Below are positions 1 through 6,000 of a stretch of 8,306 nucleotides of DNA, in pieces (within the stretch, counting starts at the first letter, position 1; each line of letters opens with the position of its first letter). The DNA is taken from positions 1 through 8,306 of the forward strand of contig JBBITJ010000045.1 of the NCBI GenBank assembly GCA_037440825.1. The letters run 5' to 3'. The DNA comes from Candidatus Micrarchaeota archaeon. GTDB taxonomy: Archaea; Micrarchaeota; Micrarchaeia; Anstonellales; Bilamarchaeaceae. Position numbers: made by a program.

Positions 1-3000
1 GAAGTAAGTTATGGCAGAACATAGCGTCTAATAATTAATTAGAATTTCTAATATATATCTAGTGGAGGTTTTCACATGATCAATGTGGTTGCAACCAAGC
101 CAAAAGAGCAATCCAAGCAAACATATTGCAGTTCTCTAAATATTCTAGAACTTCTAAAATAATTAGTAAATAGTGCTATCCTAATCTTGTTCTAAAATAG
201 AGTTAGAATTTCTAATATCTTTTATGGAATCAAGTTTTTTAAAGTACATGCGCGGATTATAGAGCTCAAAAACGGAGCAAGGCGGTCTCTTGTCCAGGAT
301 TGCCATGGCCTCAGGGCCATAAATATCAAGCACTATGCGCACGAACTCCGCATATGCGTAATGGACCGGGTTGAGCGTTGCGAGAATCTTGGTCGCCACT
401 TCCGGTCCTGCTTCGCTAGAAATGAATTTGTGCTCGAGCAGGGTCGCATGCCCTTCCAATATAGCCCTCTTTACCGGATTCGACGCATCAGCAAGGATGG
501 AATCCATCATCACGAAATGGTCGCCCTCATGCACGAAAAGCGCATCCATGATCAGGGCAAAACGACTCTTGAGTGGACCTGCAAACAACTCTTCATCGAA
601 AATGTTGTTCAGCAGTACCACCAAGGCGTTTCTGCCGTCTATCCGGAGCGCGGCTGCTGCAGGCCTAGGTTCAGAGCGATGCCGACTGCCCTTGTCGAAC
701 TCGTATGTGACGACGATCGCAGGCGCATCCATCTTCGCCTCTGAATACGCATAGCTGATGCCCTTGTGTATTGCTTCTTCGAGCCGATCGTGCTTGAGCC
801 CGAATAACCTGAGACTGCGTTGGGCATACTTGAGTTCCATGGGACGAACCGCGCTTATAATTCGCGGGGAATCAAACATGTTTATAATATTTGTACAACT
901 CTATTTATAAAAGTAGGGATTCTGAAAAAAGAGGATAAAAATAAGGGAAAAAAGAAAAATTCAGAGCTTGACGTTCTTCCTCATCTTCTTGATGAGATCC
1001 TTGGCATCGTCCTGACCTCCAAGACCGAACGCTATGCCGAACGCGAGCCCCAGCCCGAATATCATAGCCTGCACAATCGTGAGGATCGTGCTGTTCACGA
1101 GGGAGGTGTCGAATCCGACCGTGTTGAGTCCCGTGATCACGCCCATGAGGACAATCACGAACTTCGCACCCCTTGCCACAAACGTGAGGTAGCTCGACTT
1201 GCCGAGCTCAAGGAGCTTGGTCTTCACGTATTCCCCTGTGAGCGCCGCGGCCACTATCACAAGCGCAGCCCCTATCAGGACGGGCGCGTAGATGAGCACG
1301 GTGTATATGTACGTGCTGAACTGCCCGAGCGAAACGAGCGCCGCCGAGACCTCAAGGAATACGAGTATCACGTATATCTTGACGATCTTGGAGAGCACGT
1401 TGCTGAGCTTCACGCTTCCGAGCGCGTCCTGGAGCTTGTGCATCTCCAGGAACTCCTCCAGCTTGACCATTTTCAGTATCTTCTCGAAGATTCTGCTGAT
1501 AAGTACTGCAATTATCCACCCGACCACGAACACTACCGTTGCTGCAATCAAGGACGGCAGCACGTTTATCATGCTCATGACAACTGTTGCCACCGCGTTC
1601 GCCGCGACGGAGCCGGCGTCGGTGATGGAATTCATAGACCAGGCATCTGCCATTCTAATCACCGAGGGAGTAATCACACGAACCTATTTAAATGTTCGCA
1701 TGCACCTCTCGTCATGGATACGAATGAAAAGCCGTATTATCTGCTGAGCCCGCTGAGGGTGGTCCTTGTGAGCGCGAGCAGCAAGGGGAAGGACAATTTC
1801 ATGCCCGCGAGCTGGTGCTTCCCGCTCTCGTTCGAGCCCAAGCTGTTCGGAGTCGCGATTTCGCCGAAAAGATTCACGCACGGGCTGATAAAGGAGAGCG
1901 GGGAATACGTGATAAACATACCGGGTTCCAACCTGCTGGGCAAGATCGTGGAATTCGGAAGGCTTAGCGGCAAGGACTGCGACAAGTTCGAAAAATCCGG
2001 GCTCACGAAAGAGAAGTCCAGGAAGGTGGCAGCGGTTTCAATAAAGGAGTGCCTCGCGAGCATAGAATGCAAGGTCGTGGACGTGCTCAAAACTGGCGAC
2101 CACGACGTATTCGTGGGAGAAGTGCGAAATATAAACCTGCGCGGGAAAGGCCCAGGAATATATCAGAAAAACAGCGAGCTGGTCGAGATCTAGTTGAGCC
2201 AATTAGGATCGACCGCAGTAGACGGGTTGCCGGATTGCACGGAAAAGAGCTTTTTAAGGCGCTTCATCTGGCTTTGGGGCATTACCGCATCTTGCTCGGA
2301 TTTCTTGTGTTCCTTGTCCTTTTTCTCCTTCTTCATGAGTGGTTCTGAGGCAGGAAAGTATATAAATCAGAGCGTTTGGGGGCGAAATGCGGAGCTAAAG
2401 CTGGGGAATTGGACAGAAGAATTAGATTTTGATGATTTTTTCAGGGTTTTTAGGGTCCGAGTAACCTCACGGTGTCATGCACGCCCAGCACGACCTAGGA
2501 TCGCTTGCGCTTACCCTCTTTAAGCTGGAGGCATATCCGCTTGGTACGAATTTCTCGCGTGTGGCAGGTCATTCGTCTTTTTTTGCCAACATGCAGTTTC
2601 AAACCCCTTCCTAATGCATGCAGGCATTTAAAGCAACCACAGAGGCGAAAACCGCAGACCAATGGTGTCCAGACTGACTGGAGCTTTTGGACCAAACCAC
2701 GGGCCCTGCTCGGTTTACCCGAACCCTGAAAAAATATTTCAGGAATATACTTCGTTTCATTCAGGCAATTGCCAGAAGCCACTTCGACTTTTCGAGACTT
2801 TTAGGGTCCAGGTAACCTCACGGTGTCATGCACGCCCAGCACGACCTAGGATCGCTTGCGCTTACCCTCTTTAAGCTGGAGGCATATCCGCTTGGTACGA
2901 ATTTCTCGCGTGTGGCAGGTCATTCGTCTTTTTTTGCCAACATGCAGTTTCAAACCCCTTCCTAATGCATGCAGGCATTTAAAGCAACCACAGAGGCGAA

Positions 3001-6000
3001 AACCGTAAACAAATGGCCCTTAGTTGTCCAAGGCTTTGTCCATACCACTTGTCCTGCCTGGTTTTCCCAAGCCCCGAAAAGTTTCAGGGGATTATTATCT
3101 GCAACGAAACATTTTTAATGCTATCTTTTTTCGCAAAATCTACGACGTAGCCAGAAACTGCTTTATGCCGTTTTTCGGCCATCAGACGGTTCGAAAAGCG
3201 CACTTTATTTGGTCAGCGAAGACAGCAATTCGTACGCGCGCGAGGTGTCCGCCTCCCCTATCACGAGGAGCGTGTCCGTGTATGAAGAGATGAACTCGTT
3301 GACGTTTATGCCCTCCGCGGCCAGGAGATGGAGCACCGTGGATATCACGCCCGGAGTATCCTCTATCGCAGGGGTGCTCGAGAGTATGAACAGGTTGAGG
3401 TTCTCCTCGACGGAAAGTATGCTCTTGGAGCGCATGGCCTTGGCGGCCTCGCGCTGCTCCGCGATATACGTATAGAAGTGGCCGCTCTTCACCGACGACA
3501 CGGCCTCGAGCTCCAGCGGCGCGGAGGAGATCAGCACCACGACCTTGTTCCTTATGCTTATGGACGTGTCCTTGAGGACTTCGAGCACCTTGCCCTCCAT
3601 CTCAGTCTCCTTCTTCCGTATCCTGGCGCCTATGCGCATGAGCGCGGCCTTCACCGCATAGAAGTTCGACTGGGAGCGGAATACCTCCTTGCACAGCTTG
3701 CGCGCGAGGCGGCTGTAATTCACCAAGTCATATTTCAGCATCTCCTTTATGAACGGCCTGCGCTTCACGTAGAGCCACACGAGCTCGCTCGTCTTTTCCA
3801 TCATGCATCGCACTATGCGGACAAGGTTTAAATCCGTTTCGTTGCAGATTTGTCCCAAATGGAGCGTTTTTGTTTTTTATGCCCGAAATGCAACGCAATA
3901 TTTAAAAGCGTGAAAACGCCCATGTCCAGTATTCTATTGTTTAGGTGGGATAATGGCAGATTTGTTGAACAAAGTCAAGGAGAAGACCGGAAACGCTTAC
4001 GACGACGTGGACAAGGTGGTGCTCGCATTCTCTGGCGGGCTTGACACCACGGTGATCGCGTCGCTGCTCCAGGACATGGGCAAGGAAGTGATAACGTGCA
4101 CGCTGGACCTCGGCCAGCAGGGCGAGTTCAAAGGCATCGCGGAGAAATCCAAGAAGGTGGGCGCGAAGAAGCATTACGGGCTCGAGACCAAGAAGGAGTT
4201 CGTCAAGGAATACCTGTGGCCAGGGGTGAAGGCGAATGCGATGTACGAAGGGAATTATCCATTGTTCACTGCATTGGGGCGGCCTCTCATAGCCAAGAAG
4301 CTCGTGGAAATCGGGATGAAGGAGGGCGCGCAGGCGGTGTGCCACGGCTCGACAGGAAAGGGCAACGACCAGGTGCGCATAGACGCAGGCGTCGCGGCGC
4401 TCAGCCAGATGAAGGTCATAGCTCCGGTGAGGGACTGGGGGCTCACCCGCGACGAAGAAATTGCTTACGCGAAGGAGAAGGGGCTCGACGTGAAGGTCAC
4501 AAAGGACAAACCGTACTCCATTGACGAGAACCTGTGGGGAAGGAGCATAGAGGCAGGACCGATAGAGTTCCCGGAACAGGCGGTCCCGGAAGACGCATAC
4601 GAATGGACCAAGCCCGCGGACAAGGCCCCTGACAAGCCTGCGTTCGTGGACATCGCGTTCGAGAAAGGCGTGCCTGTGGAAATAATCATAGATGGAGTCC
4701 CGTACAAGGACGAGGTCGAGATGCTCAAGGCGCTCACCAAGGTCGCGGGAGAGCACGGAGTGGGGCGCATAGAGCACATGGAGGACCGCACGATCGGATT
4801 CAAGAGCCGCGAGGCGTACGAGGCACCTGCTGCGCTGGTGATACTTCCAGCCCACAAGGATCTGGAGAAGTACGTGCTCACCAAGGACGAAATATTCCAC
4901 AAGAATTACATGGACAACCTCTACGCGGACATGATATATACCGGTAAATGGTTCTCGCCCCTCAAGATCGCAATAGACAAGTTCAACGACGAGGTCGAGA
5001 GCCAGGTCACAGGCACGGTGAAGATGAAGCTATTCAAAGGCAGCGCCAGCGTGGCTTCGAGAAAGAGCGCGAACGCCCTGTACAGCCACAATGTCGCGAC
5101 GTACGACAAGAGCAGCAGCTTCGACCAGAAAGAGGGCGGAGCGTTCACCAAGCTGTGGCTGATGCAGTATTCGACAGCTTATAAAATGAAGTATGGGAAA
5201 GAGTAGCTCGAAACTGGAGACGCGGGACGGGAAACTGCTGCGTGCCGAGATGACTGCAAATGGCTGACAAGAAGATGCTCTGGGGCGGGAGATTTGAAAA
5301 ATCCCCCAAGGAGATAGTATTCAATTATATGAGCAAGGAGAACGTGGAGCTTGACTCCCGACTCGTGAGATACGACATCCTGGGCTCAATCGCGCACGTG
5401 AAGATGCTCTGCGAGCAGGGCATCCTGAAGAAGGACGAGGCGGACGCGATCATTTCCGCGCTCAAGGCCGTGCTGAAAAGCCATGAAAACGGGAAATTCC
5501 TGCTGGACAAGAAGCTGGAGGACGTGCACATGAACGTGGAGGCGGAAGTGACCAAGCTCACGCCGCATGGGAAGAAGATGCACACCGCCCGCTCGCGCAA
5601 CGACCAGGTCGCGGTTGATACGCGGCTCTACCTGCGGGACGAGTTGCTTTCGGCAGCGGAGCAGGTGGTGCGCTTGCAGAAATCATTCGCGAAGCTTGCG
5701 GAAAAGGATGCTCCGATGCCGTCCTACACGCACACGCGCGTGGCCCAGCCCATAACCGTTTCTTTCTGGTGCGAAAGCTACGTGCAATCCCTGGGGCGGG
5801 ACCTTGAACGCATATTCGACGTGTACAAGAAGGCGAACCGCAGCCCGCTTGGAGCGTGCGCGATATCCGGTACGCCGTGGAAGATAGACCGCAAGCGCAC
5901 CGCAGAATTGCTGGGCTTCGACTCCGTGCTGGAGAATGAGATGGATGCAATAGGCTCGCGCGGAGAGCTGGAAGCAGAGGTGCTTTTCACACTCTCGCAG

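Follow-up and report, generated by a model that had tools for sequence, protein, structure and literature searches.

Two tandem units and their homologues

The window analyzed here (8,306 nt) is the entire contig JBBITJ010000045.1, so that window and contig coordinates coincide throughout. According to a Pfam scan, the genes neighboring the RNA encode an ACT-domain protein, ArgG (argG), ArgH (argH), a DUF192 protein, FBPase, a flavin reductase, and a channel protein; none of the nine window ORFs scanned matched a transposase family. A repeat search of the window returned one strong hit, a direct repeat of 228 nt (2438-2665 and 2789-3016) with 96% identity and a spacing of 351. The survey's finding of two tandem minus-strand copies, at 2464-2655 and 2815-3006, was confirmed by a direct count (191 of 192 bases identical), while its figure of 97.7% identity over 218 nt, rightly indicating high similarity, had to be corrected to 211 of 218 (96.8%; 2438-2655 versus 2789-3006). 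Similarly, the core of about 190 nt described there is real and corresponds to arms B and C of the structure presented below, but it makes up only about two thirds of the unit, with arm A and a long terminal stem having been missed: the conserved unit measures ~310 nt, over which it is homologous to six copies in four relatives, the homology ending there. The near-identity of the two copies is confined to arms B and C. In the terminal stem and the other 56 to 59 nt of the predicted circles, the copies differ in sequence; the differences in the terminal stem and arm A preserve the pairs, those in the outer and inner helices being compensated on the opposite strand.

The features of both copies, all on the minus strand, are listed below; column numbers refer to alignment A5, which contains 17 sequences from 13 genomes.

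3112-3126, minus strand: BRE/TATA-like putative promoter of copy 2 (conserved box, alignment A1)
3072-3090, minus strand: putative 5' leader hairpin of copy 2 (read from the alignment)
3069-3078, minus strand: 5' strand of the outer (exon) helix of copy 2 (A5 columns 53-62, pairing with 418-427)
3062-3068, minus strand: 5' half of the bulge-helix-bulge motif of copy 2 (central helix strand 3065-3068 and 3-nt bulge 3062-3064)
2802-3062, minus strand: excised RNA of copy 2, a predicted 261-nt circle (from joints in RNA contigs; length from A5 columns 69-416)
3007-3054, minus strand: arm A of copy 2 (A5 columns 77-171; helix 4 is 97.9% paired)
2897-3006, minus strand: arm B of copy 2 (A5 columns 172-309; helices 5-7)
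2815-2896, minus strand: arm C of copy 2 (A5 columns 310-403; helices 8-12)
2979-2984, minus strand: 5' strand of the pseudoknot of copy 2, in the internal loop of arm B (pairs with 2869-2874)
2869-2874, minus strand: 3' strand of the pseudoknot of copy 2, in the internal loop of arm C (pairs with 2979-2984)
2801-2807, minus strand: 3' half of the bulge-helix-bulge motif of copy 2 (central helix strand 2804-2807 and bulge 2801-2803)
2791-2800, minus strand: 3' strand of the outer helix (3' exon) of copy 2 (alignment A5)
2725-2743, minus strand: 5' leader hairpin of copy 1 (read from the alignment)
2714-2730, minus strand: 5' side of copy 1 (outer helix 5' strand 2721-2730, central helix strand 2717-2720, bulge 2714-2716)
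2451-2714, minus strand: excised RNA of copy 1, a predicted 264-nt circle (alignment A5 and contigs of RNA run X4)
2656-2706, 2546-2655, and 2464-2545, minus strand: arms A, B, and C of copy 1, respectively
2628-2633 with 2518-2523, minus strand: pseudoknot of copy 1
2440-2456, minus strand: 3' side of copy 1 (central helix strand 2453-2456, bulge 2450-2452, outer helix 3' strand 2440-2449)
2415-2426, minus strand: T-rich stretch 3' of copy 1, a putative terminator

Matches to the RNA were confined to a single family within the phylum (14 of 99 genomes and 7 of 23 genera). The range reported previously is thus corrected to at least seven genera of that family instead of two. The homologues in G002, G003 (two copies), G004, and G006 (two copies) were all recovered, but the one claimed for G113 did not match the new model at an E value of ≤0.01, and that in G033 gave no blastn match and, if G033 was among the genomes sampled, none with the model either, its family (f10) yielding 0 of 2. 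Within the genus, three of the five positive genomes carry two copies, and the RNA was not found in three of the seven other genomes; it was absent from the syntenic locus of G005, and no match was seen beside the same neighbor genes in G021 and G011. In several genera the RNA occupies a conserved place following the FBPase and DUF192 genes, with other contexts in G003 and G006, and a search of viral contigs with two patterns returned no match. On this basis the RNA looks dispensable; its scattered occurrence hints that it is accessory and not essential, which, if correct, itself deserves explanation.

Fold, terminal stem, and flanks

The predicted architecture consists of a long terminal stem that closes three arms (A, B, and C), with a pseudoknot of 6 to 10 bp between the internal loops of arms B and C that is present in all 17 copies. 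In an alignment of eight sequences, 35 of 88 predicted pairs showed compensatory changes. With the pseudoknot included (94 pairs), 96.3% of cells were paired, versus 89.8% after shuffling, and 37 pairs changed on both sides, a number reached in 0 of 500 shuffles (mean, 15.7) and compared with 3 to 7 when the alignment was slid. For the 17 sequences, 91.7% of the cells of 69 pairs were paired (72.4% shuffled, 28 to 42% slid); double-sided changes affected 55 of these pairs, a count reached in 0 of 500 shuffles (mean, 37.6) and compared with 21 to 32 after sliding, and the covariation score was 0.659 versus 0.276. The survey had already based its structure on compensatory changes, albeit in an alignment fitted to the model. 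Our alignments were made with MAFFT and fitted to no model; because they give the same result, and with stronger support, that caveat no longer applies, and the proposal of a new structured noncoding RNA without an Rfam family is strengthened. The strand is fixed by frequent G-U pairs (column pair 85-165, for instance, is G-U in 15 of 17 sequences). In minimum-free-energy folds, both precursors form the bulge-helix-bulge (BHB) motif discussed next, but the folding energies of the circles are only modestly better than those of shuffled sequences (z scores of -1.8 and -1.3).

This motif, located in the terminal stem (A5 columns 53-74 and 406-427), comprises two 3-nt bulges on opposite strands around a helix of four positions. 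Both bulges (columns 67-69 and 415-417) are 3 nt wide, without a gap in any of the 17 rows. Of the four positions of the central helix (columns 63-66, facing 411-414), the first three are G-C in 14, 16, and 16 of the 17 sequences, and the last forms a standard pair in 11, with A opposite A in 6. Of the flanking helices, the outer one, irregular in G109 and G015, comprises 10 pairs, all of which show changes on both sides (88.2% paired), and the inner one has 5 pairs (96.5% paired). For a splicing endonuclease substrate, the hBHBh' motif is defined in PMC7714728 by a pair of 3-nt bulges, one on each strand, with a helix of 4 bp between them. Here, we found the two 3-nt bulges and the four-position central helix (with a nonstandard fourth position in 6 of the 17 copies), flanking helices with two or more Watson-Crick pairs on both the exon and the intron sides, and, from assembled RNA contigs, an excised piece with its ends joined at the bulges. 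The genome also encodes the splicing endonuclease EndA (PF01974 matches in a 392-amino-acid ORF and in a 159-amino-acid ORF, the latter an EndA paralogue) and the RNA ligase RtcB (PF01139 match, 484 bits). In our structural model, the terminal stem is a BHB processing signal, and EndA and RtcB would be the acting enzymes.

The exons are short (~30 and ~12 nt) and entirely different in sequence between genera, their pairing alone being conserved. Approximately 23 nt before the leader hairpin, the box TTTAAAAA (in copy 2, ATTAAAAA) is kept in seven of the eight copies of the genus (alignment A1), and the 5S rRNA gene of this genome has a nearly identical box in front of it; the box upstream of copy 2 would act as a TATA-type promoter. 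No good TATA box was found upstream of copy 1, which may therefore be, and probably is, read through from copy 2. In copy 2, the 3' arm of the leader hairpin shares positions with the 5' strand of the outer helix, and the two pairings are therefore in competition. Judged by eye, the distant homologues also have leader hairpins of other sequences in their upstream flanks, and most homologues have T-rich stretches downstream of the 3' exon.

Several known identities were considered. As stated in the survey, the window contains no Rfam match at gathering thresholds (0 matches over its whole length). The permissive search that had been outstanding (E ≤ 10, 2300-3200) produced two weak matches, CRISPR-DR22 (E value of 1.2, 3112-3139) and snR100 (E value of 6.6, 2313-2371), neither of which lies in the repeat bodies. 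Hence, the repeat bodies matched none of the Rfam 15 families (Archaea_SRP, RNaseP_arch, rRNAs, ribozymes, and riboswitches among them) at E ≤ 10, and nine distant homologue loci gave 0 matches to Rfam 15 families at E ≤ 0.1. ARAGORN reported 0 tRNAs, and SRP RNA, RNase P RNA, and 5S rRNA were each located elsewhere in the genome. A tRNA or rRNA intron was dismissed on the grounds that there is no tRNA and no rRNA match and that the exon sequences differ completely between genera. The same holds for an IS200/IS605 omega RNA, with neither tnpB nor iscB among the neighbors; moreover, both RNA ends are paired, so that no free guide segment is left. Finally, a protein-coding circle was rejected: all 17 predicted circles contain stops in all three frames, in line with the lack of coding potential noted before, and their length is a multiple of 3 in just 6 of 17.

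Joined ends in assembled RNA contigs

The RNA evidence consists of assembled contigs, rather than raw reads, from runs X3, X4, and X5 of three studies. They stem from this organism or its relatives (in X3, 16 of 68 matched records reach a likeness of at least 99%). Such contigs reveal neither the strand nor the termini of an RNA and are in themselves insufficient as proof of a covalent circle. In X3, three contig variants go back from 3037 to 2801. In X4, there are joints from 3060 to 2801 and from 3057 to 2450, the latter with copy-1-type letters between its two sides; record 12 matches 2450-2515 without any difference. In X5, a joint leads from 2709 to 2801 and omits the 91-nt spacer. The joints of all three runs put the 3' bulge beside the 5' bulge and point to a 261-nt circle (3062 to 2802) and a 264-nt circle (2714 to 2451). 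In tRNA splicing, each bulge is cut after its second base, and the observed joints are the junction expected from such cuts; given a run of A at both bulges, the cut sites are uncertain by up to 2 nt. The X4 joint contigs, with two listed pieces each, measure 285 and 287 nt, slightly above the circle size (250 to 264 nt), as wrap-around contigs should; contigs with other X4 joints are of similar length (292 and 280 nt), and record 16 spans 2846-2869 twice. Three further X4 joints (2545 to 2801, 2572 to 2999, and 3037 to 2484) represent mapping across the two copies. Through the BHB motif and the joined ends in the RNA contigs, the ends of the RNA are now located.

We consider it likely that each copy is a stand-alone gene with a covalently closed, highly structured noncoding RNA of ~260 nt as its product. 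A precursor of ~310 nt would be transcribed from the TATA-type promoter (for copy 1, probably by read-through from copy 2), and its leader and trailer would pair as a helix of 9 to 12 bp, which, together with the 5-bp inner helix, would present the BHB. EndA would then cleave within both bulges and RtcB would ligate both ends of the excised piece, upon which the circle, which we infer to be the end product, would fold as three arms pinned by the B-C pseudoknot. As their sequences are not conserved, leader and trailer would constitute a processing handle alone. That the circle functions as a stable protein-binding scaffold is our working guess, and a weak one. We further find it plausible, though somewhat short of probable, that this is the first dedicated circular-RNA gene in archaea, in which vestigial exons have become a BHB handle and the tRNA-splicing machinery releases a pseudoknotted ring of ~260 nt that acts in trans, either as a ribozyme or at the core of a new ribonucleoprotein, with two arm-A isoforms arising from one tandem unit.

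Competing readings and known systems

Instead of being the end product, the circle might be a mere intermediate that is re-opened elsewhere into a working, circularly permuted linear RNA, as for Thermoproteus SRP RNA and Pyrococcus 23S rRNA. Archaeal BHB-dependent circular intermediates and permuted products are known (PMC4731332 and PMC7758197), and contigs do not distinguish a circle from a full-length permuted linear molecule. However, the gene order already puts the ends in the closing helix, no permuted known family spans the tandem pair at Rfam E ≤ 10, and the listed joint contigs are full length with wrap-around; we regard this scenario as unlikely. Distinctly less probable, in our view, is an artifactual origin of the joints (from assembly, from mapping on similar copies, or from DNA with head-to-tail arrays), with the true product being a linear structured RNA of ~300 nt. 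While the RNA evidence does come from contigs alone, RNA libraries can contain DNA, and the similarity of the copies makes mapping ambiguous, as the extra X4 joints reflect, the same bulge-bulge junction occurs in three studies and in several sequence variants. Moreover, it omits a spacer that is present in the DNA, a spacer-free array occurs in 0 of 13 genomes, and few records continue into dissimilar sequence (the fraction being 0.09 in X3, 0.02 in X4, and 0 in X5).

Equally improbable is that the element represents an orphan or selfish archaeal intron, or an intron of an unrecognized small RNA whose joined exons are the product. The BHB ends, the patchy distribution, the genomes with two copies, and the changed contexts in G003 and G006 would be compatible with this, but it is the excised part that is conserved and covarying, whereas the exons, short and free of any tRNA or Rfam family, conserve their pairing and not their sequence between genera. 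In addition, the element has its own conserved putative promoter box, its position after FBPase and DUF192 in several genera fits vertical descent, and the viral contigs gave no match with two patterns. As for a very divergent or rearranged known RNA (a detached RNase P RNA domain, a second SRP-like RNA, or a split-off rRNA piece), size and complexity are similar to those of such RNAs, RNase P RNA is represented in the genome by a match of just 232 nt that falls short of the Rfam cutoff, and the 23S rRNA is unassembled in this genome, where a missing piece would go unnoticed. Nevertheless, the Rfam searches of the element (E ≤ 10) and of nine distant homologues (E ≤ 0.1) were negative, SRP RNA, RNase P RNA, and 5S rRNA are present elsewhere, and no match was found in most genomes of the family, so that we give this explanation very little credence.

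No RNA of the kind favored here, a dedicated circular noncoding RNA, was found in the databases and papers searched. In being large, pseudoknotted, rich in helices, and strongly covarying, it resembles OLE, GOLLD, ROOL, and raiA, large bacterial RNAs with many helices and pseudoknots, strong covariation, and unknown function. These are described as linear transcripts, however, and the present RNA is archaeal and matches none of them in sequence or by Rfam model (E ≤ 10). It would enlarge the small set of large structured archaeal RNAs of unknown function, in a little-studied group of uncultivated, symbiotic archaea with small genomes.

As described in PMC7714728 and PMC12558985, archaeal pre-16S and pre-23S rRNAs carry a BHB in their processing stem, are cut by EndA, and are ligated to circular intermediates. 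The arrangement here is alike in that flanking leader and trailer form a long BHB helix and the ends of the excised RNA are joined, but the RNA measures 250 to 264 nt, belongs to no known family, and has its own putative promoter, and nothing suggests re-opening. Archaeal tRNA and rRNA introns and the BHB intron in the 5' untranslated region of Haloferax HVO_1309 are likewise BHB-bounded pieces that are excised and circularized (PMC7714728); their product, however, is the exons, whereas here the conserved, structured part is excised and the short exons lie in no recognizable gene. Thermoproteus SRP RNA, according to PMC4731332, is restored from a permuted gene via BHB cutting and circularization and hence provides a precedent for a stable structured noncoding RNA made in this way, but it belongs to a known family, while the gene reported here is unpermuted and the genome encodes its SRP RNA elsewhere. 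Circular forms have also been described for archaeal C/D box RNAs, RNase P RNA, 5S rRNA, and IS200/IS605 omega RNAs (PMC3326292 and PMC12558985). Those are isoforms of RNAs that also exist in linear form, and for omega RNAs the authors of PMC12558985 found no BHB motif; in our case, the BHB is built into the gene.

The BHB-made circular RNAs of archaea have so far comprised introns, rRNA intermediates, and one repaired SRP RNA. A gene that apparently exists solely for a conserved, elaborately folded ring RNA without a known family would represent a new use of the tRNA-splicing machinery, and its natural design, in which a cargo is flanked by a short leader and trailer that pair with each other, is reminiscent of engineered systems for circular-RNA production.

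The RNA unit and its terminal stem

Since the window is the entire contig (G000:C45 of the source genome, G000), the coordinates of the survey's finding are valid unchanged. A repeat search of the window detected a single strong direct repeat, whose units occupy 2438-2665 and 2789-3016 (228 nt, 96% identity, 351 nt apart), and the near-identity reported for the two copies was borne out: 2464-2655 and 2815-3006 agree at 191/192 positions, and 2438-2655 and 2789-3006 agree at 211/218. The source genome contains these two copies only. The RNA core of about 190 nt proposed in the survey is thereby a real repeat, but mapping of alignment columns showed that it represents arms B and C only of a larger RNA, for which the following rings are predicted.

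2451-2714, minus strand: predicted ring of copy 1
2802-3062, minus strand: predicted ring of copy 2

The minus strand was assigned because of frequent G-U pairs. Searching 40 relatives by blastn yielded six copies in four genomes of the same genus, with approximately 300 to 310 nt of the 353-nt query matched. In two genus-level alignments with flanks (A1 and A2), conservation starts at a TTTAAAAA box, about 23 nt ahead of a short leader hairpin, and stops just short of T-rich sequence. RNAalifold, applied to eight copies, predicted a long terminal stem that encloses three arms; compensatory changes occur in 35 of the 88 predicted pairs. Arm A forms a long hairpin interrupted by an A-rich bulge, and arms B and C contain one large internal loop each. 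Along their 5' sides, the two loops show complementarity to each other over 6 to 10 bp in 17/17 copies; this pseudoknot occurs in at least five co-varying versions (CTTTAA/TTAAAG, CTCTAA/TTAGAG, CTTTAGG/CCTAAAG, TGTTCCA/TGGAACA, and TGTCCCA/TGGGACA), and on A2 (columns 131-136 with 242-247) all of its cells are paired and two pairs have changes in both partners. The idea of another tertiary pairing, which would join a junction-loop CCC to the conserved GGG in the loop of arm B, was dropped because the CCC of one relative's copy (G003_a) varies along with the central helix's 5' strand and not with arm B.

The terminal stem stays in register in A5, a MAFFT alignment of 17 full-length copies, and has bulge-helix-bulge (BHB) geometry as defined in excerpts of PMC7714728.

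Elements of the terminal stem, by A5 column
Outer helix: columns 53-62 with 418-427
Central helix: columns 63-66 with 411-414
Bulges, 3 nt each: columns 67-69 (5' strand) and 415-417 (3' strand)
Inner helix: columns 70-74 with 406-410

Over the 69 pairs of A5, 91.7% of cells are paired (72.4% in shuffled and 28 to 42% in slid alignments), 55 pairs change on both sides (shuffled mean, 37.6, with 0/500 shuffles reaching 55; slid, 21 to 32), and the covariation score is 0.659 (shuffled, 0.276; slid, 0.07 to 0.16). All 10 pairs of the outer helix change on both sides and its sequence differs in each genus, from which we infer that what is conserved in leader and trailer is the helix alone. The BHB motif is present in the minimum-free-energy fold of each precursor. 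Among the genes of the source genome are those for a splicing endonuclease of 392 amino acids (EndA, on G000:C1) that has both its N-terminal and its catalytic domain, for a 159-amino-acid paralogue, and for RtcB. The RtcB match (G000:C12:21585-24377; L143 and L144) is itself split, with profile positions 1-50 and 46-426 lying some 1.4 kb apart in one open frame of 983 amino acids, which looks like an intein-type insertion. One homologue, L134 (G109:C12, approximately 1430-1749), is enlarged by insertions in arms A and B to a predicted 314-nt circle; its outer helix is poor, and it may be a degenerate or variant copy.

Between copies 1 and 2, arms B and C differ at 1/192 positions, while the remaining 56 to 59 nt of the circles (arm A, an inner-helix strand, and junction bases) show many mismatches and gaps. 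The helix strands at 2443-2447 and 2459-2460 differ as well. Since these differences are matched by the partner strands, the pairs are kept, and the processing stem is therefore retained in both copies. This distribution of differences suggests that the core underwent gene conversion or that two isoforms exist. Copy 2 has a TATA-like box, resembling the one ahead of the 5S rRNA gene of the source genome, and lacks a T-rich end; no good box precedes copy 1. A single transcript likely yields both rings.

Several further elements were observed in the flanks. The promoter-proximal sequence of copy 2 recurs in opposite orientation about 105 nt upstream of argG, as a 22-nt inverted repeat (3097-3118 and 3828-3849; 86% complementary), probably a promoter and initiator element common to both sites. 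Directly downstream of copy 1 lies an open reading frame for 48 amino acids, lysine rich and lacking a Pfam match (2190-2336, minus strand). A 28-nt AT-rich motif is present three times (27-54, 133-160, and 191-218), at or just past the 3' end of a 232-amino-acid minus-strand open reading frame without a Pfam match, and many of the RNA homologues have a related TCTAAT-type motif after their 3' exon. Finally, the source genome's genes for SRP RNA, RNase P RNA, and 5S rRNA were folded together with 70-nt flanks (L009, L010, and L140); in the minimum-free-energy structures of all three, an upstream stretch rich in GGAAC/GGAAAC is paired with one rich in GTTTCC/GTTCC just downstream. In two of the three, the upstream stretch lies ahead of a TATA-like box. 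This predicted pairing could reflect a shared flanking inverted repeat or terminator element.

Range and genomic setting

The only covariance model searched was R1, which covers the three arms and not the full length (239 positions, 67 pairs; match threshold, E≤0.01), so that distant relatives may be missed. R1 matched 14/99 genomes and 7/23 genera in the family sample. In the order sample it matched 11/151 genomes, all within this family (0/77 in 11 other families), and in the phylum sample 5/151, again all within this family (0/124 in 19 other families). A pattern scan of genome contigs returned 105 stretches, of which nhmmer supported as real only those of four known relatives. The same kind of scan in metagenomes returned 13, including eight further members by R1 (E≤0.01); four of the remaining five were aligned and looked unrelated. 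Two patterns gave no match in viral contigs.

The RNA gene directly follows genes for FBPase and a DUF192 protein in G020, G108, G112, and G015, and lies one gene farther away in G104 and G010; the same two genes are found in this window. Its retention after this pair in several genera points to vertical descent. The distribution is patchy: of the seven other genomes in the genus, three gave no match; the syntenic locus of G005 lacks the RNA gene, and nothing was matched next to FBPase and DUF192 in G021 and G011. Run with filters off, R1 had no significant match in the regions of G005, G007, G021, and G011 that carry the same neighbor genes; in G021, another gene directly follows the DUF192 gene.

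Joined ends in RNA sequencing runs

A search of sequencing runs returned 20 rows containing part of the stretch, 14 of them recorded as RNA. Four runs were compared as assembled contigs at a likeness of at least 80%: the RNA runs X3 and X4, from freshwater, and X5, from sediment, which belong to three studies, and X2, whose kind is uncertain and which may be DNA. Another 18 runs held a small share of the sampled words or none, which is no evidence of habitat. We found a backward joint, 3037->2801, in three contig variants of X3, and two more, 3060->2801 and 3057->2450, in X4, while one X5 contig joins 2709 to 2801, skipping the 91-nt spacer. In the RNA sense, every joint places the 3' bulge directly ahead of the 5' bulge. 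Cleavage behind the second base of each bulge, a position assumed by analogy with tRNA splicing, would give 3062->2802 (261 nt) and 2714->2451 (264 nt) as products, and the observed junction agrees, with an uncertainty of up to 2 nt due to A runs in both bulges.

Less probably, such joints are artefacts of assembly or mapping. The X4 contigs listed at these joints measure 285 and 287 nt, those at other X4 joints measure 292 and 280 nt, and one X4 contig passes over 2846-2869 twice; with a word length presumed to be 31 letters, these lengths and the double coverage are what wrap-around assembly of a 250- to 264-nt circle gives. Predicted circles have that size in 16/17 copies and measure 314 nt in the other. 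No X3, X4, or X5 contig lay on 2364-2427, 2716-2779, or 3068-3250, which proves nothing for contigs of relatives. Because contigs are incapable of proving covalent closure, this evidence for a ring is strong but not final.

Identity of the RNA and known BHB-derived circles

A very divergent version of a known RNA is an unlikely alternative. No Rfam family matched anywhere in the window at gathering thresholds, in line with what the survey had stated for the RNA; a permissive search (E≤10, 2300-3200) added just two weak matches, both off the repeat bodies and neither relevant to the element, and none of nine distant homologue loci matched at E≤0.1. SRP RNA and RNase P RNA were rejected because both are found elsewhere in the genome, at G000:C17:16761-17035 (75 bits, E of 2e-17; gathering score, 96.5) and G000:C9:19113-19344 (67.9 bits, E of 3.5e-19, only 232 nt; gathering score, 84). 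These matches fall below the gathering scores: the standard Rfam models of both RNAs fit this lineage poorly. The 5S rRNA was located on G000:C1 (81.4 bits). ARAGORN reported no tRNA, and the element had no Rfam rRNA match; the source genome's 23S rRNA gene, in which a missing piece might show, is unassembled. A coding ring was rejected as well, with stop codons in all frames of all predicted circles.

Less probably, the RNA might be an orphan intron, or the ring the circular intermediate of a permuted linear RNA; BHB-derived circles of both intron and intermediate type are known. If the ring is itself the product, its size and pseudoknot, together with conserved unpaired bases and a dedicated route to a nuclease-resistant form, would fit a stable scaffold or a catalytic RNA. 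The patchiness of its distribution argues for an accessory function. A full-text search, limited to one paper collection, returned no report of a ring RNA that belongs to an unknown family and has a stand-alone gene, nor any such report on this phylum, and PMC12918454 does not contain the terms Micrarchaeota, ncRNA, or SRP. Going by excerpts of the papers cited, the known BHB-derived circles include archaeal tRNA and rRNA introns and one mRNA leader (PMC7714728), pre-rRNA intermediates (PMC7714728, PMC12558985), and the SRP RNA of Thermoproteus (PMC4731332).
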